Origin: Vicinamibacteria bacterium
GTDB lineage: Bacteria; Acidobacteriota; Vicinamibacteria; Marinacidobacterales; Marinacidobacteraceae
Length of the DNA: 64,000 nucleotides
Direction: 5' to 3'
Assembly (NCBI GenBank): GCA_963668695.2
Contig: CAXXLQ010000004.1
Coordinates: 3,040,001-3,104,000 of the forward strand
The notes under the pieces were generated by a model that did not search any database, was not told the origin of the DNA, and saw nothing but the letters and a program-made list of their open reading frames with translations. This document shows, one piece after another, positions 39,821 to 49,333 of the stretch; the stretch's first letter is position 1; each line of letters opens with the position of its first letter. Made by a program: the position numbers and the translations under genes.

Positions 39821-39823
39821 AAG

Positions 39824-40299
39824 CCGCGCCAGCGGCTTCGGATAAGCACCGCCTCCTTCATCGGAAGTCGCGAAGGGCTGTCCTGGGTCCGGATCGTGGC
39901 TCAATCCCGATCGGAAGTCGCCCTCGCGACTTCGCATCCGCAGCCATGTCGCACCGGGGGCCCGCCCGCATATCAGGGCGCGCTTATCGGACGCCGCGCC
40001 AGCGGCTTCGGATAAGCACCGCCTCCTTCATCGGAAGTCGCGAAGGGCCGTCCTGGGTCCGGATCGTGGCTCAATCCCGATCGGAAGTCGCCCTCGCGAC
40101 TTCGCATCCGCAGCCATGTCGCACCGGGGGCCCGCCCGCATATCAGGGCGCGCTTATCGGACGCCGCGCCAGCGGTCGGACGCCGCGCCAGCGGTCTTCG
40201 GATAAGCACCGCCTCCTTCATCGGAAGTCGCGAAGGGCCGTCCTGGGTCCGGATCGTGGCTCAATCCCGATCGGAAGTCGCCTTCGCGACTTCCGATAA
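39824..40299. repeat. Tandem ~170 bp repeat (about 2.7 units) rich in XerC-arm-like half-sites
   Basis: GATAAGCACC recurs at 39841, 40011 and 40201; third unit runs into dif. Confidence 0.9.
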
Positions 40300-40316
40300 G
40301 GATGCTTATGTTAAAT
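40289..40316 (+). other. dif: dif site (XerC/XerD recombination site)
   Basis: ACTTCCGATAA-GGATGC-TTATGTTAAAT: 11-6-11 layout; right arm identical to the E. coli XerD arm; GGGCAGGG polarity flips here. Confidence 0.88.
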
Positions 40317-40358: not shown

Positions 40359-41258
40359 TCACCCCTGCTCGCGAAACGCCGTCACGTCGCGGTGGAAGAC
40401 GAATAGCGAATCCATGTCTTCCGACGGCGATTCGAAGTTGTAGGTTCGCCCGCCAAGCACCTTCACACGCAGGTTGTTGCTCAGGTAGTCCAGCTCGAAG
40501 CGTTCCGCCTGTGCGAACGGCAACTGGAAAGCATCCTTGTGATCCGTCCGGTAGTCGAACCCCTGGGGAGTTGCGACGAGCGTCCCTTCGCAGGATCCGA
40601 ACCGATGTTTGTGTACCACGGCCACCTTGACGTCCAGTGACGCCACCAGGTCGCCGAACACCACTCGCACCGGCACCGCTCTCCTTTCGACCGCCACCCG
40701 ACGGGAAACGATGTCGTGCCCCTCGGTAGACACCGTCAGGTTGTACTCCCCGGGCTGAAGATCCGCGATCGTGACCGGGGTGTTTCCCTTGAAGTTCCGG
40801 TCGATAAAGACGTTCGCTCCGGCGATGTCACTCTCCACGACGATGGACCCGAGCATTTCGGCGAGGGTCGCCGCCAACGAGCGGGTGCGGCCACCGCGGA
40901 TGGTGACGCTGACCTCCAGGGGATGGAAGCCTTCCTTCTCCACTCGAACCGGGTACTCACCGGCATCCAGGTCTTCCCAGGTGCCCGGAACCGTGCCAAG
41001 CACCCGGCCGTCCAGAATGACACTGGCGCCATCGGTGCCCTCGATCTGCAGGGTACCGGTGGTGGGCGGTGCCGGCGGTGGCGGCGGTGGCGCTCGCTCT
41101 GGTTCCGGCGCCTTGACCGGCGTCTCGTCGGCCGGTGCGGCTTCTTCCTCCGGGGCCGCAGGCTCCTCGCCTCCCCCACATCCTGCCAAGGCGCCGACCC
41201 CCGCCAGCAGGGCCAGTGACCCGAAGAGAATGCGCGCCCACTCAGCGAGGCGAATCAT
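40359..41258 (-). CDS. PEGA-domain lipoprotein
   Basis: LAGC lipobox; two repeats GASVILDG...G-T-P and GANVFIDRNFKGNTP. Confidence 0.85.
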   Translation of the reverse strand: MIRLAEWARILFGSLALLAGVGALAGCGGGEEPAAPEEEAAPADETPVKAPEPERAPPPPPPAPPTTGTLQIEGTDGASVILDGRVLGTVPGTWEDLDAGEYPVRVEKEGFHPLEVSVTIRGGRTRSLAATLAEMLGSIVVESDIAGANVFIDRNFKGNTPVTIADLQPGEYNLTVSTEGHDIVSRRVAVERRAVPVRVVFGDLVASLDVKVAVVHKHRFGSCEGTLVATPQGFDYRTDHKDAFQLPFAQAERFELDYLSNNLRVKVLGGRTYNFESPSEDMDSLFVFHRDVTAFREQG

Positions 41259-41760
41259 TCACGGAGCCCCCCACCTCACGGTAACCCCGGTCGTAGTAGA
41301 GAAGCGGTGCGGCGTCCTCCCGCTCTACCCTGCCCTCGGTCACCCGGCCGATGAACAGCGTGTGATCGCCCTCCCGGTGGGCGCCGACCGTGCTGCACTC
41401 GAGCCAACCGATACAGCCGGACAGTCGTGGCGGGTACCCAGCCCCGCCAGCCGCCACCGCTGCAGCAAGAGACTCGCCGAACTGATCGGCCGAGTCCAAC
41501 CCCGGCTTCGCGAAGTGGCCCGAGACGTCAGCCTGATCAGCAGCGAGAAGGTGCACCCGAAATCCCCCGGCGGCGATCGCAGCATGCGCCCGGGCGGCGT
41601 TCATGATGGAGACGAGCACTAACGGCGGTTCGAGACTCACGGGGATGAACGAACTGACGGTGATCCCTCTCGGCCCCTCTGGACCGCTCGCGGTCACGAC
41701 GGTCACAAGTTGCGGAGCGCGGCGCATCAGAGCACGAATCTCCGAGGCCGCGTCGCTCAT
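41242..41760 (-). CDS. Flavin reductase family protein
   Basis: VTVVTA, GITVSSF..VSLEPP, GDHTLFIG, PLLY. Confidence 0.92.
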   Translation of the reverse strand: MSDAASEIRALMRRAPQLVTVVTASGPEGPRGITVSSFIPVSLEPPLVLVSIMNAARAHAAIAAGGFRVHLLAADQADVSGHFAKPGLDSADQFGESLAAAVAAGGAGYPPRLSGCIGWLECSTVGAHREGDHTLFIGRVTEGRVEREDAAPLLYYDRGYREVGGSVNDSPR

Positions 41761-41764
41761 CCAG

Positions 41765-42244
41765 CTACGACCGCGTCTCGTCCAGTTCCTCGAAATCGGC
41801 TGTATAGCTGATGTCCACGGCGCCCTTCAGGGTGTTTGCGAGAGGGCAGCCGCGCTCATGGAAACGGAGGGCCCGTTCCGCTTCTTCGCGTTTACCGGCC
41901 GGCAACGCCACTTGGTACCGGATCCGGATGGCGCGCAACGCCATGACGCCGCCCTCGTCCACGATGTCGCCTTCGATTTCTGCCGAGAGCCGATCCGGCT
42001 GGCTCGGGATGCCGCGTACTTCGAGCGCCCGCCCGAACGTCCCCACCATTCAACCACCGGTGGCGGCCACCACGTAGTCAAGGGTCGCCGGCAACTCTTC
42101 CGCTGGCGTTACCCCATAGAAGGCAGCGATTCCGCTGTGGACGCCGAAACGGACCGGCTGCTCGAAGTCCTCAAGGAATGCCTGCCGGACCGGACCAGCC
42201 TGCTTGATGACCCGGGCGTGGCAGGTATGGACAACTTTGCTCAT
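41765..42244 (-). CDS. OsmC-like selenoprotein
   Basis: TLDYVVAATGG-TGA(42050-42052)-MVGTF in frame; second Cys in ERGCPLANTL; hairpin 42020-42037. Confidence 0.87.
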
Positions 42245-42786
42245 CGCGACTCTACGAAGATCTCGGAATGGAGCATCTTCACCGGGGCTCCGGCCTTCGC
42301 CGTCGGCAGGGACAGTTCCAGGGTGGTGCTGGTAGGAGCACTGCACGCGTTGTCCGTACAGAGCTGGTAGCGAACCAGCACTTCCGCATCCGCCGAACGT
42401 CCGCTCTTGAGGACAGAAGTAACGGGAATGCGGATCGCCACCGTCCCTTCGTAGAGATCGTATTCACCAAGACCGGAAAGATCCCGCCGGATCGGCTCCG
42501 GATAGAACGGCTGTCCGCTTTCGAAAGCCCCACCCTGGGCCAGTTCCACGACCGTGGCGGTGGGGAATGCCTCTTCGGGTCCGTAGAGGTGGTATCCCTC
42601 TTCGAGTTCTGCGACTACCGCGACTTCGAAGCTGTCGCCGGGACGCACCGGGGACTGGGAGGCCACCAACTCGAAGCGCGCCGCGTTCTCCCAATCGGGA
42701 ATCATCGGCGCCTGGGCGGCAAGGGCGGCAGCAAGGCCGCCGGACACGGTCAGGGCGAGGCCGGACAGCAGGAGAGAGTGTTTCAT
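42241..42786 (-). CDS. Secreted DsbD N-terminal-like domain protein
   Basis: Signal peptide; GYHLYG; YQLCTDNACSAP. Confidence 0.8.
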   Translation of the reverse strand: MKHSLLLSGLALTVSGGLAAALAAQAPMIPDWENAARFELVASQSPVRPGDSFEVAVVAELEEGYHLYGPEEAFPTATVVELAQGGAFESGQPFYPEPIRRDLSGLGEYDLYEGTVAIRIPVTSVLKSGRSADAEVLVRYQLCTDNACSAPTSTTLELSLPTAKAGAPVKMLHSEIFVESR

Positions 42787-42817
42787 GGGACGAAACTCCT
42801 TGGGATTGGGCTCGCGA

Positions 42818-43399
42818 TCAGGATCCGGCGAGACGGGAGAGCTCGGAAAGGATCTCCTTGGGGGAGGTCCGGTCGCGGTAGTTCACCCACACGTTGACGA
42901 ACCGAACTACGCCGTCACCATCCACGATGATGGTTGCCGGATGGGGAATGCCTTCCCGCTCCGTGCCATTGTGCTCCGGATTGGGGATGCCGTATTCGCT
43001 GATGACCTGACCTCCGTCCACCATGATCGGGAACGTCCAGTCATTCTTCGAGAGCCACATCAGGGTGTCCCCCACCCCGTATTTGGAAACGCCGAGTACC
43101 GTGACGCCGCGCGCCTCGAACTGATCCAGGGACTCTTGCAACTCGCCGAGTTGCGCAATGCAGAATGGTCACCAACCGCCACTGCGGAAGAACTCAAGAA
43201 CGACCGGCCCTCGCTTCACGAGTTCGGAGAGTCGGTAGGAGGCGCCGTGGGCGTCCTTCAGTTCGAAATCGGGCGCGCGGGCACCAACCTTCACCGTCGG
43301 GGTGTCGGTGCCCTGCGCGGATCCGCTGGAAGGGGCGAGGCCCGTGGCCAAGCCGACGGCCAGCAATGCAGAGACAGGAAGTCGAGACATGCGGGCCAT
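42818..43399 (-). CDS. Secreted AhpC/TSA peroxiredoxin-like selenoprotein (UPFC)
   Basis: APDFELKD..VVLEFFRSGGW-TGA(43169-43171)-PFCIAQLGEL in frame with the downstream ORF; hairpin 43138-43154. Confidence 0.9.
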
Positions 43400-43568
43400 T
43401 TTAGCCCGGCTGTTTCGATGCCAAGAAGACGGCCAAGGCCGAAAGGAACGATTCGTCTCCTACGGGTTTCCTGGTCGATCAGCGGCTAACCACGAATTGC
43501 GGCGCATAACGGGCCGCCCCACCAGCATTGGCCGCCGGCGTTCACCTTCGGGGACCCTGTCGATCTGT

Positions 43569-44444
43569 CTATCCTGTTGATTCACCTTCGCTTGTGTCCG
43601 ATGTCGGCGCGCCGACATCCTCACGTTGTTCTTCAAGCTGCCGTAACAACGTGCGGAGTGCCTCCACCACTTCCGCCTCCTCGACCTCACTGCGCCGGAA
43701 GGTCAACTGGAGGCGAAAGGGGCCGCCCTTGGGGGCGAACCGGAAGACAAACGGTCGCGCTCGTTCTCCCTTGGACTTTCTGCGCTTCGGGATCGGTTCA
43801 TTCAGTCCCTGGGCGAGGCGTTGGACGCACGCCAGCATGGCCTCGACATTCGGCTCGCGGGCCACTCGCAGCAACTGTCGACGAGACACGATCCCCGACG
43901 CCCAGGAGACCTCGCGGATCTCTTCCGGAATGTTGAGCAGGGCAAGCGTCTCCGTGATCGAGGTGCGTCCTTTGCCCACCCGGCGGGCGAGAGAGTCGTG
44001 AGTGTGTCCATGCTCCCTGATGAGCCCCTCGTACGCGGTGGCCTCCTCAAAGGGAGACAGGTCGTCCCGGAGCAAGTTCTCCACCAGAGCCAGCTCGAGG
44101 GCGTCCCCTGCCCCCGCCTCCCTCTCGATGCAGGGCACTTCGCGCAATCCGGCCAGCACCGCCGCCCGGTAGCGGCGTTCGCCAGCGATGATCTGAAAGT
44201 CCTTCGAGCCCAGTCGGCGCACCAGGATCGGCTGCAGGATTCCCTGGTCCCGGATCGAGGTGGCGAGCGGTTCCAGCGCTCCGATGCGTTGGCGCGGCTG
44301 ATCGGGATTGGGGTGGATCTGAGCGGTTGGGATCATCCGTTGACGGGCGCCCGGCTCATCGGGGGTCAGCCCCGCCACGTAGTGGCTGTCACGCGGTTTC
44401 AAGCTGACTTTTTCAGGAAGACCGGTTCGTTTGGACACGGGCAA
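43569..44444 (-). CDS. parB: ParB/Spo0J family protein
   Basis: NPDQPR, LQPILVR, IAGERRYRA, ENLLRDDL, HTH. Confidence 0.9.
   Translation of the reverse strand: MPVSKRTGLPEKVSLKPRDSHYVAGLTPDEPGARQRMIPTAQIHPNPDQPRQRIGALEPLATSIRDQGILQPILVRRLGSKDFQIIAGERRYRAAVLAGLREVPCIEREAGAGDALELALVENLLRDDLSPFEEATAYEGLIREHGHTHDSLARRVGKGRTSITETLALLNIPEEIREVSWASGIVSRRQLLRVAREPNVEAMLACVQRLAQGLNEPIPKRRKSKGERARPFVFRFAPKGGPFRLQLTFRRSEVEEAEVVEALRTLLRQLEEQREDVGAPTSDTSEGESTG
43600..43619. promoter_or_regulatory. Perfect palindrome, candidate non-canonical parS
   Basis: GATGTCGGCGCGCCGACATC in the 3' end of parB; function inferred only. Confidence 0.4.
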
Positions 44445-45189
44445 GCACCTCCCGAGACAGATGTCGGTAATCCTCAGCTCCTCGAGAGTTGGGGGCGAAC
44501 GTGAAGATGGACTCCTTGTACGCAGGACTCTCCTCGAGTCGGACGTTGCGGCTGATCAGCGTTCGGAATACCGCTTTCCCGAAATGCCCGCGGATCTTGC
44601 GGATCGCGTCCCGGGCAATCCGCGTCCGCTGATCGGCCATGGTGATCACCACCCCGAGGATGGACAGATCCGGATTGGGGCGCCGGCGGACCTGCTCGAG
44701 CGTGTCGAGGAGATCGTCGGCCCCTTCGAGGGCGTAGTACGTCGGCGGCAGCGGCAACAACAGATAGTCACTGGCAACCAGCGCATTCACCGTGATGAGC
44801 CCCAGGGTGGGAGGGGTGTCGATCACCACGAAATCGAACTGCTCCCGGACATACTGGATCCGATCCCGGAGCCGGTAATGGGCGTCGATGTCGCCAAGAA
44901 GTTGGCGCTCCAATTTGGCCAGCGAGATGCGCGCCTCGGCCACCGACAGGCGTTCCACCGATGTGGGCCTGATGATGTCCGCGAACCGCACCTCACCCGT
45001 CAGAGCCTCGAGCATTGAGGCTCTGGATGGGTCCGGGCCGATGACACTTACCGAGGCGTTTGCCTGTGGGTCCACATCAACGAGCAGCGTGCGGTGTCCG
45101 GCGTCCGCGAACGCCGCCGCCAGGTTGACCGCGGTCGTGGTCTTGGCCACCCCGCCCTTCTGATTGGCGACGGTGATGGTGGCGCGCAT
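44413..45189 (-). CDS. parA: ParA/Soj family ATPase
   Basis: NQKGGVAKTTT, DVDPQAN, IDTPP. Confidence 0.92.
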   Translation of the reverse strand: MRATITVANQKGGVAKTTTAVNLAAAFADAGHRTLLVDVDPQANASVSVIGPDPSRASMLEALTGEVRFADIIRPTSVERLSVAEARISLAKLERQLLGDIDAHYRLRDRIQYVREQFDFVVIDTPPTLGLITVNALVASDYLLLPLPPTYYALEGADDLLDTLEQVRRRPNPDLSILGVVITMADQRTRIARDAIRKIRGHFGKAVFRTLISRNVRLEESPAYKESIFTFAPNSRGAEDYRHLSREVLARVQTNRSS

Positions 45190-45367
45190 TTAGCAGCCTG
45201 TAGACAAAGTGACGTGAGCGTCGAGGCTGGGGAGGCGCCCGGCTGACAAGGCGCGATTTGGGAGGAATACCGGATGTATTCCGACCGAATCGGAACACAG
45301 AGCGTAGCGGTTCAGCCGGGATGCATCGCCCGCCGAACGCCGCGTGACTTTGTCCACAGGCTGCTTG
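45190..45367. mobile_element. MITE-like element, copy 6, abutting the parA ATG
   Basis: TTAGCAGCCTGTAGACAAAG...CTTTGTCCACAGGCTGCTTG; same core. Confidence 0.8.
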
Positions 45368-45371
45368 GTGC

Positions 45372-45872
45372 TCAGTGCGCGTCGCCGAGATCGTCCTCGT
45401 CGAGGGCTTCGAGCCAGTCGCCGAGCGCCTCGCTGTCCTCTGGCGGTTCCACGTCCTCTGCCATGAGCTCTTCGGCCCGCCGCGCCCCGCGCTCGATGAC
45501 ACGCGAATGGACGAAGATGGGCGCCCGGGTCCTTAGCGCCAGCGCTATCGCGTCGCTCGGGCGGGCGTCCACCGCGAGCCGCTGCCGTTTCCGCTCCAGA
45601 TGAACATGCGCATAGAAAGTGTTGTCCTGAACATCATGGATCACCACCTTGATCACCCGCGCGTCCAGCTCCCTGAGGAGTTCCCGGATCAGGTCGTGGG
45701 TGAACGGGCGCGGGGGTTCGTAGTTCTCGATCTGAAGGCCGATCGCGCGCACCTCCATGGGTCCCACCCAGATGGGAATTTCCCGATCGCCGGATTCCTC
45801 CTTGAGCATGACCACTGCGGCGCTGGTCCGCGGCACCATCAGGATCGCCTTGATGCTTACCTCAATCTCCAC
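45372..45872 (-). CDS. Bifunctional nuclease (DUF151) family protein
   Basis: IPIWVG..E, RPFTHDL, DARPSDAIALA. Confidence 0.92.
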   Translation of the reverse strand: MEIEVSIKAILMVPRTSAAVVMLKEESGDREIPIWVGPMEVRAIGLQIENYEPPRPFTHDLIRELLRELDARVIKVVIHDVQDNTFYAHVHLERKRQRLAVDARPSDAIALALRTRAPIFVHSRVIERGARRAEELMAEDVEPPEDSEALGDWLEALDEDDLGDAH

Positions 45873-45893: not shown

Positions 45894-47423
45894 TCATCTG
45901 GGCAGTAGCTGCTCGCGGACATTGCTGCCGGGAACCGCCTGTACTACCGGAAGAGGGATTTCGGATGTCCACGCGTCGGGATCCGCCGCGGGAGCCGGGG
46001 ATTCAAGGGCGGTCCGTCGTGGCTCCCCTGAACTCACGAGCTTTCCTATCAGGCTGTTCGGACTGAACCCGGTAATCATGACCTCGCCGAAGCCTCCGGT
46101 AGCCTCCACGGGACCGTCGAAATTGACGATCCGGTTGTCGGGGCCTCGTCCCGCAAGTTGATTGCCCTTTCGGCTGGGCCCTTCGATCAGAACTTCGACC
46201 TTGCGGCCCACGAGATCGCGGTGGAGAGACAACTGGATCTCTCGCTGTCTCGTCTGCAATTCAATTAGCCGTTCGGTTTTTTCGGTATCCGGGACATCGT
46301 CCGGCAGACGTTTCGACGCGAGTGTATGGGGACGCTCGGAGTACTTGAAGGAATACACCGATGAAAAGCGCACCTCATCGAGGAGGGTCAACGTGTCTTC
46401 GAACTCGTTCGCGGTTTCACCGCAGAACCCGACGATGAGGTCCGTGGAGAGCGCAAGGTCGGGAGCCCGCTCGCGCGCCCGGAGGACGAGTTCCAGAAAT
46501 CCCTCGCGGCTGTAACCACGACGCATGCGCTCCAGCACACTCGTCGAGCCGGATTGCGCGGGCAGATGCATGTGTGGCATCAACGGTCCCCCGGCCGCAA
46601 AACGGTCCATGAGTTCCTCGCTGAAATCCTTGGGATGAGGACTCGTAAAGCGGATCCGGCGGATTCCCGGTACTGCCCCCACCGCATCGGTCAACTCGGC
46701 AAAGCCAAGTCCATCCTCCGGATCCCGATAGGAATTCACGTTCTGGCCGAGTAGCTGGATCTCCGCGAACCCCGACGCTGTGAGGGATTCGGCTTCCCGC
46801 ACGATCGACGCTACGGTCCGGCATCGCTCACGTCCCCTGGTGAAGGGCACGACACAGAAAGAGCAGAAGTTGTCGCAGCCCTCCATGATGGTGATGTACG
46901 CCTTTACCCCGGGAATCCGATCGATCTGCTCCGGCGGGATGTCGAGGTTGTCCGGGTGCCGCCCGATTTCGACAATCCGGGACTCGCCATCGAGTAGCCG
47001 GCGCACGACATCCGGAAGACACACGAGGCTCTGGGTGCCGAGGACGAAGTCGACCGCGGGCGCCCGGCCGAAGATGGCTGCCCCTTCCTGCTGGGCCACG
47101 CATCCTGCCACGCCGATCAGTTGGGGGCGCTTCCGGCCCCGACCGACGAGCTGCTCCACGCGGGCAAAGACCTTTTCCTGCGCCTTTTCGCGAACCGAAC
47201 AGGTGTTCAGGACGACGACCTCCGCGGGTTCGGCTCCCGCCGGACGGCAGCCCAGCGTTCCGAGCGCGGCCGCCATCTTCTCCGAGTCGTGGACGTTCAT
47301 CTGGCAACCCCAGGTTTCGATCCGGAATCGGAAAGGAGCGCGCGATCCCCGGCCGGACAGGTCGCTGACTGAACCGGGAAGGGCGGCTGGACCGGCCAGG
47401 GGGTCGCTTGTCCAGACGGTCAT
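45894..47423 (-). CDS. miaB: tRNA methylthiotransferase MiaB
   Basis: GCQMNVHDSE, NTCSVRE, CDNFCSFC radical SAM motif, TRAM domain. Confidence 0.95.
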   Translation of the reverse strand: MTVWTSDPLAGPAALPGSVSDLSGRGSRAPFRFRIETWGCQMNVHDSEKMAAALGTLGCRPAGAEPAEVVVLNTCSVREKAQEKVFARVEQLVGRGRKRPQLIGVAGCVAQQEGAAIFGRAPAVDFVLGTQSLVCLPDVVRRLLDGESRIVEIGRHPDNLDIPPEQIDRIPGVKAYITIMEGCDNFCSFCVVPFTRGRERCRTVASIVREAESLTASGFAEIQLLGQNVNSYRDPEDGLGFAELTDAVGAVPGIRRIRFTSPHPKDFSEELMDRFAAGGPLMPHMHLPAQSGSTSVLERMRRGYSREGFLELVLRARERAPDLALSTDLIVGFCGETANEFEDTLTLLDEVRFSSVYSFKYSERPHTLASKRLPDDVPDTEKTERLIELQTRQREIQLSLHRDLVGRKVEVLIEGPSRKGNQLAGRGPDNRIVNFDGPVEATGGFGEVMITGFSPNSLIGKLVSSGEPRRTALESPAPAADPDAWTSEIPLPVVQAVPGSNVREQLLPR

Positions 47424-49211
47424 TCAGGAACCCGCAAACGCCCCCGGAAACCCGGCGCTGTCGCCGCCGGAAGACTCGGTGTTCGCGCCGGCGAGCAATT
47501 GCGACGCGTGCTCCCGGGCACTGTCGGTAATCTGGGGACCAGCGAGCATACGGGCGATTTCTTCGATCCGGGCGCTGTCGTCGAGGCAGCGAACGCGAAC
47601 CGCATCGCCGGATTCTAGTTTCTCGACGACCAGATGGGCTCGGCCGAGGGCCGCCACCTGAGGAAGATGCGTAACCGAGACGACCTGGCGCGACACGGCA
47701 AGACGACGAAGGCGCCGCCCGACCGCATCCGCAATGCGCCCGGACGTGCCGGTGTCCGCTTCGTCGAAGATCAGGGTATCCGCGCCTCCCTCCCCCGCCC
47801 CGGCCGCTTTGAGCGCCAGGAAAAAACGCGAGGACTCGCCACCCGATGCAACTTCGCCGATGGGAGCGGGCACCATCTCGGGACTGGCGCTGAAGAGAAA
47901 ATGGACGCGGTCCAACCCGTGCTCCGTGAAGTGCTCCGTGCCCGCGTCCACTTCCCGTTCCGATCGTCCCCGTAGAGCCTTGATCCCGATCAAGAAGCGC
48001 GCGCGCGGAATACCGAGCCCAACGAGTTCGTGCTGTACCTTGCGCGCGAGTGCCTCCCCGGCGGTCTCGCGGGCAGCGTGGAGCGATGCGGCCAGGTTCC
48101 GGTAGCGGATAGCCCCAGCCTCTGCGGCCGTCACCGCCCTTCGGCGCTCCTGGGCCTGATCGGTGAGCTCGGAGAGTGCGACCCGGATCTCTTTCGCGCG
48201 CTCGAGCAGGGCGTCGGCTCCACCCGTTCCCCCCGCATGGCGGCGCTCGAGACCGCGCAGTACGACGAGGCGGTCTTCGATCTCCGCGAGCCGCTCGGGC
48301 GCCGCCCGGACGCGGTCCCGCCGATCCCGCACGCCAGCAGCCAGATCCTCCACTTCGACGAGCAGATCCGGACGTCCGTCGAGCAGTCGGGCGGTCTCCG
48401 GGTCCAAGGCAGCCGCGCCGTCAAGCGCACGAAGCGCGATCGCCAATTGCGCACCCGCTGCCGTTTCTGACCCGTAGAGCGCCTGATATGCACTCTCGAG
48501 ACGTCCGGCGAGCTGGTCCGCATGCCCGAGTGCACGCCGCTCGACCAGCAGGGATTCCGTCTCGCCCGGTTCCGGCGCAGCGCGCTTGATCTCCTCAAGA
48601 GCGCGTTCCATCGCGGCACGCTGAAGCTCCGCCTGGCAGAGCCGGTTTTCCAGAGCGTCACGCTCGTCCTCGGCAGCGCGAAGCACCCGGAGGGCCGCCG
48701 CCACCTGCCGCCGCAAGGCGGCATGTCCGCCCACCGCATCCACGCTTTCCCGGGCAGCCCCGGGTTGGAGCAGGGCCAGATACTCTCCCTGGCTGTACAC
48801 CTCGGCAAGCAGCATTCCCACCGCCCGGAGCCCGGCCACCGGGATCGCTGCGCCGTTCAGGGAAATCCGATTGGCAGCCGAGCGCCGCCCCGGTGCGAAA
48901 CGCAGTTCCCGCCGTACCACGAGTTCGCCGTCCTCGGTCGAAACGCCAGCCTCTTCACATAGCGCCAGCAGCCGCTCGCTGGCTGCTGACGCCTCGTCCG
49001 ACAGGGTGAATCCCGCCTCGACAACAGCGCGATCTCCAGCAGGTCCTATGAGCTGGGAACGGCCGCGGCCGCCCAGGATGAGGCCCAACGCCTCCAGGAG
49101 AATGCTCTTCCCGACGCCGGTCTCGCCGGTAACGACGTTCAGGCCTTCCCCGAATTCGAGAGAGACATCCTTGAGGAGGGCGACGTTTCGCGCCCGCAGC
49201 CAGTGAAGCAT
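47424..49211 (-). CDS. recN: DNA repair protein RecN
   Basis: TGETGVGKS, coiled coil, ASGGE, IFDEAD, THLPQVA, EIARML. Confidence 0.93.
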   Translation of the reverse strand: MLHWLRARNVALLKDVSLEFGEGLNVVTGETGVGKSILLEALGLILGGRGRSQLIGPAGDRAVVEAGFTLSDEASAASERLLALCEEAGVSTEDGELVVRRELRFAPGRRSAANRISLNGAAIPVAGLRAVGMLLAEVYSQGEYLALLQPGAARESVDAVGGHAALRRQVAAALRVLRAAEDERDALENRLCQAELQRAAMERALEEIKRAAPEPGETESLLVERRALGHADQLAGRLESAYQALYGSETAAGAQLAIALRALDGAAALDPETARLLDGRPDLLVEVEDLAAGVRDRRDRVRAAPERLAEIEDRLVVLRGLERRHAGGTGGADALLERAKEIRVALSELTDQAQERRRAVTAAEAGAIRYRNLAASLHAARETAGEALARKVQHELVGLGIPRARFLIGIKALRGRSEREVDAGTEHFTEHGLDRVHFLFSASPEMVPAPIGEVASGGESSRFFLALKAAGAGEGGADTLIFDEADTGTSGRIADAVGRRLRRLAVSRQVVSVTHLPQVAALGRAHLVVEKLESGDAVRVRCLDDSARIEEIARMLAGPQITDSAREHASQLLAGANTESSGGDSAGFPGAFAGS

Positions 49212-49333
49212 GGTGGCCAGTACGACGTTCGAGTGCGCTACAACGATGTACAGGCGGCTTCGGCCCTGCCGCCACCTGGGAAGCGCACCCCGAGGGGTGC
49301 ACACCCCGAAATGGACGAGAACCCCAACGGGTA

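Follow-up and report, generated by a model that had tools for sequence, protein, structure and literature searches.

Locus and chromosomal position of the parA2-parB2 pair

The window analysed here is a stretch of 64,000 nucleotides from the genome of a Vicinamibacteria bacterium of the phylum Acidobacteriota (G000:C4:3,040,001-3,104,000; genome of 4.1 Mb in 4 contigs with 67% G+C, contig C4 of 3.9 Mb). It carries an overlapping parA-parB pair, here named parA2-parB2, beside a dif-like Xer recombination site (Table 1). A preliminary description of the window had proposed that this pair is intact, adjoins dif and is a second ParAB paralog which organizes or segregates the replication terminus (ter). 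Both open reading frames (ORFs) were confirmed, with the motif KGGVAKTT in ParA2 and the motif IIAGERRYRAA together with a helix-turn-helix (HTH) domain in ParB2.

Table 1. Features of the parA2-parB2 locus (window coordinates)
Feature	Position	Strand	Description
parB2	43569-44444	-	ORF, 291 aa; ParB-family CTPase paralog; Pfam ParB_N + HTH_ParB
parA2	44413-45189	-	ORF, 258 aa; deviant Walker-A ATPase; 32-nt overlap with parB2; Pfam AAA_31
dif-like Xer site	40289-40316	+	Left arm, 6-bp centre, right arm TTATGTTAAAT
Candidate centromere parS2	43602-43617	.	Perfect palindrome TGTCGGCGCGCCGACA; within the last 15 codons of parB2
BFN-domain protein	45372-45872	-	Conserved upstream partner; Pfam BFN_dom 132 bits
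miaB	45894-47423	-	TIGR01574 441 bits, above cut-off
recN	47424-49304	-	TIGR00634 360 bits, full length, under its 408 cut-off
Four genes, parB2-to-dif interval	40359-43399	-	Pfam, translation, synteny in 20 relatives
Miniature inverted-repeat transposable element (MITE)-like insertion, BFN/parA2 gap	45193-45363	.	Outside the partition system
170-bp tandem repeat abutting dif, far side	39823-40290	.	Tandem Repeats Finder: 2.1 copies, 99% identity, plus a partial copy

The distance between parB2 and the dif-like site is 3.25 kb. This site matched once in the window and in 0 of 100 shuffles, and it is the sole match at ≤3 mismatches in the 4.1-Mb genome. We take its right arm to be identical to the XerD arm of the E. 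coli site. Elsewhere, the genome codes for XerD (337 bits, above cut-off) and for a second Xer recombinase. Along C4, the cumulative GC skew is maximal at 3,080,000, which corresponds to window position 40,000 and falls on dif. The minimum lies at ~1.10 Mb, where dnaA (C4:1,095,797-1,097,284) and dnaN are located. parB2 is at the skew maximum, away from oriC, and is separated from dnaA by 0.49 of the contig.

A misassembly between 40.3 and 43.6 kb, which the preliminary description had considered, is not borne out, because contigs of two runs from two studies, one of which may be the window's own source, run unbroken from 40282/40290 to 45258/45261 and connect dif to parA2. The only contig breaks are at the tandem repeat to the left of dif and at the MITE-like repeat in the gap between BFN and parA2. 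In a scan of 22 ORFs from 35.4 to 53.2 kb, no plasmid or phage family was matched, as had been described.

Origin-proximal ParAB1

The check for a separate parAB near the origin was positive. The genome has a second ParB_N match at C4:1,089,361, 6 kb from dnaA, which belongs to an ordinary pair (parA1, C4:1,089,699-1,090,475; parB1, 1,088,848-1,089,702; ~6 kb from dnaA). The sole perfect canonical parS 16-mer of the genome (TGTTNCACGTGAAACA-type) is at C4:1,090,521, 46 bp upstream of parA1 and 2 Mb distant from parB2. The genome is thus equipped with an ordinary origin-proximal ParABS and with a second pair half a circle away on the same chromosome.

Conservation of position and gene order

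The setting of the pair downstream of recN-miaB-BFN and near tol genes had been recognized correctly. recN, miaB and BFN share one strand, and tolQ and tolB follow beyond recN on the opposite strand, along with a gene for a TonB-like protein. Twenty independent assemblies (L002-L021) share the order tolQ | recN-miaB-BFN-parA2-parB2-(4 genes)-dif. To these we added 80 further loci, which were found with the N-terminal motif of ParB2 (see below), are mostly from Acidoferrales and had a flank of 6 kb examined. The order MiaB-BFN-ParA2-ParB2 occurs in L002-L022, in most of L023-L036 and in 55-57 of the 80 further loci; in the latter, ParA2 is upstream of ParB2 in 79/80, BFN in 57/80 and MiaB in 55/80.

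The position relative to the origin is kept as well. All five complete close relatives have exactly 2 ParB_N matches, one of them ~6 kb from dnaA, and parB2 is 0.46-0.50 of the circle away from dnaA when measured along the shorter arc (5/5). Six further families contributed ten large contigs, in which this arc is 0.42-0.49, and two Acidoferrales chromosomes have arcs of 0.47 and 0.40, so that the ter placement holds in 12 large chromosomes or contigs beyond the close relatives. Of 21 related loci, 18 have a dif-like site 1.1-3.9 kb downstream of parB2; the other three have <2.5 kb of downstream flank. Among distant loci, 7 of 15 have such a site 15-885 bp past the parB2 stop codon, including one from a genome with 31% G+C. 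The right arm of dif faces parB2 in 18/18 close loci and in 5/7 distant loci. The computational checks named in the preliminary description all spoke for a conserved second paralog at ter.

ParB2 is widespread in the phylum and was assigned to 118 of 201 sampled genomes. A genome was counted as ParB2-type at E ≤6e-41, where the match usually extended from query residue 2-6 to ~270; the remaining genomes gave ParB1-type matches over residues ~25-215, or none. E-values do not divide the two classes sharply, and the classification by E-value was therefore compared with coverage. Three of the genomes are unpublished (G029 and G157 among the 118, G054 in the ParB1-only set), and without them the count is 116/198.

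The genome G117 carries two full-length DnaA-family matches (E ~1e-69 to 1e-70). Both are on the same 3.6-Mb contig, separated by ~120 kb when counted across its ends.

Properties of ParA2 and ParB2

ParA2: The protein matches AAA_31 (177 bits) and CbiA (89 bits) of Pfam, and weakly MipZ (38.6 bits). With ParA1 it shares 39% identity over 255 aa.

ParB2 family and phylogeny: ParB2 matches ParB_N (92 bits) and HTH_ParB (54 bits) and no other Pfam family. It scores 140 bits with TIGR00180, above the cut-off, and 152 with the Noc model TIGR04285, for which the cut-off is 315. The identity with ParB1 is 51% and is limited to residues 36-177. In a maximum-likelihood tree of sequences from the phylum (19 ParB1 and 19 ParB2, rooted at the midpoint, no outgroup), the two groups separate at 100/100 and have a similar depth. 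ParB2 is, as judged from this tree, an old and distinct paralog of ParB1, which supports the second paralog at ter that had been proposed. In a search of the plasmid database PLSDB, ParB2 found generic ParB similarity only, with no match closer than 44% identity and all matches restricted to the N-terminal and HTH part.

ParB2 fold and nucleotide-binding motifs: The AlphaFold2 model of ParB2 (predicted local distance difference test, pLDDT, 80) contains the ParB N-domain, the HTH and a C-terminal beta-beta-alpha element at residues 232-276 (pLDDT ~90), the putative dimerization domain. Its best fold matches are solved structures of Noc (top) and ParB, with E ~1e-13. The C-terminal part has no sequence match to ParB1, and the full matches among solved structures are C-terminally truncated. 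The QPR, GERR and ENLxR boxes show no variation among 19 orthologs, and G88, E89, R90, R91, E122, N123 and R126 are among the invariant residues. The preliminary description had called the termini of ParB2 atypical. This holds for the N-terminus, which reads SKRTGLP instead of the GLG-type motif of ParB1, and for an acidic tail; the C-terminal fold, on the other hand, is predicted to be the usual one.

Glu165: Only four alignment columns cleanly split ParB1 from ParB2. One is in the recognition helix, where Glu165 is present in 19/19 ParB2 and Asn in 19/19 ParB1. The HTH of ParB2 aligns with the DNA-binding domains of solved ParB and Noc, and its ITETLALL corresponds to (V/I)AN.LRLL in four solved ParB/Noc sequences (alignments were shown for 4 of 9 matched). 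In the excerpted text of Jalal et al. (2020; PMC7383237), N178 is among six parS-contacting residues conserved in ParB and Noc, and R173 is ParB-specific. In our alignment, Glu165 is the counterpart of N178, and Arg160 that of R173. As the Asn at the N178 position is replaced with Glu165 in all ParB2, a changed DNA specificity of ParB2 is expected.

N-terminal peptide: The N-terminal motif of canonical ParB is the peptide that stimulates ParA. ParB2 has a conserved peptide SKRGLP-x4-MRHDxH[YF]VE in this region, which differs from the GLG motif of ParB1; Pro10 of ParB2 (GLP) stands where ParB1 has Gly (GLG). In the G191/G201 lineage (L028, L029), BFN is directly followed by parB2 without parA2, ParB2 starts 30 residues later and lacks the SKRGLP...MRHD peptide, and the nearest exact palindrome (see below) is 452 kb away. 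The joint loss of ParA2 and the peptide supports a partnership between the two.

A candidate centromere, parS2

We scanned 21 aligned operons in 16-nt windows for conservation. A first scan for runs of 100% identity (≥12) gave none, and the relaxed scan found the motif. The second most conserved window (43601-43616, mean column identity 0.979) coincides with the perfect palindrome listed as candidate parS2 in Table 1, with the consensus TGTCGGC-NN-GCCGACA, in which the central two bases are variable. The genome has a single exact copy, and 0.05 are expected from base composition. The palindrome is found with ≤2 mismatches at the same place in 20/20 close loci. The acidic C-terminal tail of ParB2 is largely the translation of this conserved DNA. 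In L018-L020, the palindrome is downstream of the parB2 stop codon and hence outside the ORF, so that the conservation is at the DNA and not at the protein level.

In the five complete close relatives, exact copies are limited to the end of parB2, apart from a second copy 0.2-0.5 kb past dif in two of them (G003, G004), where the two copies bracket dif. Bracketing copies are seen in the loci L009, L013 and L024. Among distant loci, the palindrome occurs with ≤1 mismatch within 1.6 kb of parB2 in 11/16. Three genomes of ~6 Mb each (G098, G007, G087) contain one exact copy each, in or beside parB2. The five copies of G115 (6.5 Mb) all fall between 875,554 and 1,005,002, within 130 kb around parB2 (928,456) and dif (~928,243), and the four copies of G165 fall within 53 kb. 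G078 has no exact copy in its genome.

Across the phylum, the exact palindrome is present in 87/201 sampled genomes, usually as a single copy, compared with 5/201 for a reversed control pattern. It occurs in 86/118 ParB2-type genomes and in 1/83 others (G070); when the three unpublished genomes are excluded, the numbers are 84/116 and 1/82. We give no p-value for these counts, as related genomes are not independent. The location was tallied for 73 listed sites from published genomes, with 38 further sites outside this tally: 54 are within 2 kb of a ParB2 match, 13 more are on the same contig within 60 kb of it (including the four of G165), and six are elsewhere (G106 C82, G070, G019 twice, G181 C3, G201). 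By these counts the palindrome is confined to parB2 and the ter region and tracks the presence of ParB2.

In family f40 (G045, G075, G088, G061), the single exact palindrome is located on the parB2 contig at a distance of 44-51 kb in 4/4 genomes, which suggests a conserved displaced site, possibly at the dif of these genomes.

Perfect 12-16-bp palindromes within 30 or 100 kb of dif gave no significant enrichment in this genome, because the true candidate is single-copy. Two other repeats were not adopted. The palindrome ACAGAC-N4-GTCTGT just past parB2 is present in 6/96 loci only and could be a hairpin. An inverted repeat upstream of parA2, considered as a possible parS, was rejected since it represents the ends of the genome-wide MITE-like repeat.

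A probable terminus-dedicated ParABS and its alternatives

We consider it probable that parA2, parB2 and the palindrome form a terminus-dedicated ParABS with a distinct specificity and its own centromere, acting in cis (ParABS2). Canonical ParB spreads over ~10-20 kb. ParB2 would be loaded at parS2, 3.3 kb from dif, in the form of a CTP-dependent clamp, and would then spread over a few kb including dif. Its SKRGLP...MRHD peptide would engage ParA2, which would act as the motor and actively position or separate the terminus complex. A broader proposal, which we put forward tentatively and as possible rather than probable, is that many Acidobacteriota have a two-centromere chromosome, with one centromere at the origin (parS/ParAB1) and one at the terminus (parS2/ParAB2). 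In such cells, ParB2 clamps would load beside dif, on both sides in some genomes, and the ParA motor would hold or separate the sister termini, so that dif is presented at the septum to FtsK/XerCD.

Several observations weigh against a terminus-dedicated ParABS. It is co-location alone that points to ParB2 as the binder of the palindrome, and 32/118 ParB2-type genomes have no exact copy. Only 5 of the 80 further loci contain it (shuffles 0.55), despite nearly the same recognition helix, and a dif-like site is present within 6 kb in ~8 of them (shuffles 1.6). The Acidoferrales genome G206 (5.6 Mb) has 25 exact dispersed palindromes, none of which is at its parAB2 locus. The dif candidates of G201, G165, G007 and G206 are weaker and 24-41 kb off, and G087, G044 and G207-G210 gave no dif-like site with the pattern used. 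Inheritance of the gene order, and not selection, could account for the conserved position, and the relatives are non-independent. The loss of ParA2 in the G191/G201 lineage shows that ParB2 can persist without its motor. Finally, metatranscriptome contigs from two libraries of one study cover the genes (X8, 43540-44998; X10, 43420-43929 and 44110-44656), but as such libraries can contain DNA, they are a weak hint of expression and do not prove transcription; we draw nothing from the stretches that RNA contigs leave uncovered.

No alternative shared palindrome was found in the Acidoferrales loci, and four other Acidoferrales genomes have no exact copy of the present one. The copies of G206 (L047, L136-L139) often form pairs 160-260 bp apart with AT-rich intergenic flanks and TTGCAA-like boxes, e.g., around recO-glyQ-glyS. 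The dispersed copies indicate that the 16-mer can have another life, as a repetitive extragenic palindromic (REP)-like repeat or as the operator of another protein. In G206, it may be such a REP-like repeat or a dispersed set of sites like those of Noc or KorB.

Three other explanations were weighed. According to the first, which we regard as unlikely, ParB2 and parS2 are a landmark for division: they would mark ter for ParA2 as a division regulator of the MipZ/PomZ type, or ParB2 would hand dif to FtsK/XerCD with ParA2 as an accessory. The location of the sites at or around dif, the orientation of the right dif arm toward parB2 and the persistence of ParB2 without ParA2 in G191/G201 would all fit, as would the weak MipZ match of ParA2. 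That match, however, scores far under those to AAA_31 and CbiA (ParA1 was not scored alongside), and ParA2 accompanies ParB2 in nearly all of the further loci while the ParA-type N-terminal peptide is kept, as in ordinary partition pairs.

It is quite improbable, in our estimate, that the module is a relic of a plasmid or of an Xer-exploiting element which integrated at dif, was kept by descent and now serves as a KorB-like regulator or is near-idle. Partition modules are typical of plasmids, Xer-dependent integration, according to excerpts of the literature, puts DNA at dif, and next to dif is a tandem repeat that includes degenerate copies of the dif-flanking sequence; the dispersed intergenic 16-mers of G206 resemble an operator set. 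Against such an origin, the genome has one dif-like site and no second flanking one, no integrase, replication or phage family was matched from dif to recN, and the module is embedded in the housekeeping operon recN-miaB-BFN with gaps of 15-30 bp. The depth of ParB2 in the tree equals that of ParB1, the plasmid ParB proteins are distant and matched in part only, and the CTPase motifs are strictly conserved. An origin by integration would also be compatible with a terminus role today, and this explanation concerns the origin more than the present role.

We find it hard to credit that the palindrome is not the site of ParB2. ParB2 would then bind ordinary parS, or DNA non-specifically with a Noc-like function at the nucleoid, and the conserved 16-mer would have a regulatory or structural role in the operon. 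In favour, many ParB2 loci lack the motif, and G206 has it dispersed independently of parAB2. On the other hand, no ParB2 retains the parS-contacting Asn, the sole perfect parS is 2 Mb away, the Noc model scores under half its cut-off, the motif tracks ParB2 across the phylum, and the extra copies of G115 and G165 cluster over tens of kb around ter, unlike an operon-local element.

Comparison with known systems

Chromosomal ParABS: ParABS2 resembles the chromosomal systems (Soj/Spo0J of Bacillus; ParAB of Caulobacter, Thermus and Myxococcus) in its protein families, the overlapping parA-parB operon, the GERR/ENLxR motifs, the HTH, the predicted C-terminal beta-beta-alpha element and a 16-bp TGT...ACA palindrome in or beside parB. 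It differs in that it is located at the terminus by dif and coexists with an origin-proximal system, has another palindrome, carries Glu in place of the parS-contacting Asn and has GLP...MRHD at the N-terminus of ParB2 instead of GLG.

Noc: Noc of Firmicutes is likewise a ParB paralog with reprogrammed DNA specificity, and its solved structure is the top fold match of ParB2. Noc has no ParA of its own, whereas ParA2 adjoins ParB2. The Noc-binding sites (NBS) are distributed chromosome-wide except near ter, as stated in the excerpt of PMC7383237, whereas ParB2 would have 1-5 sites, at ter. ParB2 also keeps the ParB-type Arg at the R173 position and stays far below the cut-off of the Noc model.

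MatP and ZapT: The functional analogy to MatP/matS that the preliminary description had drawn would consist in the organization or segregation of ter. MatP/matS of enterobacteria and ZapT of Caulobacter, as far as the excerpted sources describe them, mark the terminus in a sequence-specific manner, and the likeness is one of analogy only. The proteins are unrelated to ParB2, and the MatP and ZapT systems have neither an NTPase clamp nor an ATPase partner. The MatP family was not among the Pfam matches of ParB2; a search for MatP in the genome was not made.

ParAB2/parS2 of secondary replicons: With secondary replicons, e.g., chromosome 2 of Vibrio cholerae, one cell has a second, non-cross-reacting ParABS, according to excerpted sources. 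Such a system serves a separate replicon near its own origin, whereas the two systems described here share one chromosome at a distance of about half a circle.

KorB: KorB of plasmid RK2, which an excerpted source describes as a CTPase of the ParB family with many palindromic binding sites, may bear on the 25 copies of G206. The clade of the window has 1-2 sites per genome and a cognate ParA next to ParB2, and the fold match of ParB2 to KorB is weaker (E 5e-10, 24% identity).

The segregation of the terminus is usually credited to FtsK, Xer and unrelated ter-binding proteins. In the full-text literature searched, which largely leaves subscription journals outside, we found no ter-proximal ParAB, no ParB paralog at dif and no study of ParABS in Acidobacteriota. 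dif was predicted in 3/3 Acidobacteria by Kono et al. (2011; PMC3025954), where ParB is unmentioned in the excerpted text, and a 2020 review (PMC7333895) treats ParABS, in the excerpted part, as a segregation machine of the origin region. A ter-side ParABS with its own candidate centromere, common to many Acidobacteriota, therefore appears to be new with respect to this literature. If true, the terminus would be actively segregated by a ParA, a step so far thought to proceed without dedicated partition machinery. Glu165 and TGTCGGC-NN-GCCGACA would offer a testable site-protein pair for the evolution of ParB specificity beyond the switch from ParB to Noc, and ParB2/parS2 would provide a natural terminus marker in poorly studied, mostly uncultured bacteria.

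Neighbouring features

170-bp tandem repeat: The repeat ends exactly at dif, and each unit contains a hairpin and a degenerate copy of the sequence flanking dif on the left. It may stem from repeated Xer-linked events or from slippage at the terminus.

MITE-like element: The element has inverted ends of 20 bp, of which the genome contains 170 arm copies (≤2 mismatches). Of these, 27 are in inverted pairs, whose median span is 215 bp. The element is missing at this spot in relatives with a BFN-parA2 gap of ~15 bp (L002 and others). The read depth is 10-20 fold up at the element; we give no weight to the depth figures.

Genes between parB2 and dif: The interval encodes an AhpC/TSA-like ORF with an in-frame TGA, a DsbD_N-like protein, a flavin reductase and a PEGA lipoprotein. 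The TGA of the AhpC/TSA-like ORF (42818-43399, minus strand) is at 43169-43171, at the active-site position (GGW-TGA-PFC), with a hairpin directly downstream. The split of this ORF in two is kept in 20/20 close relatives. The ORF probably encodes a selenocysteine-containing redox protein, and the DsbD_N-like gene and the flavin reductase gene come after it.

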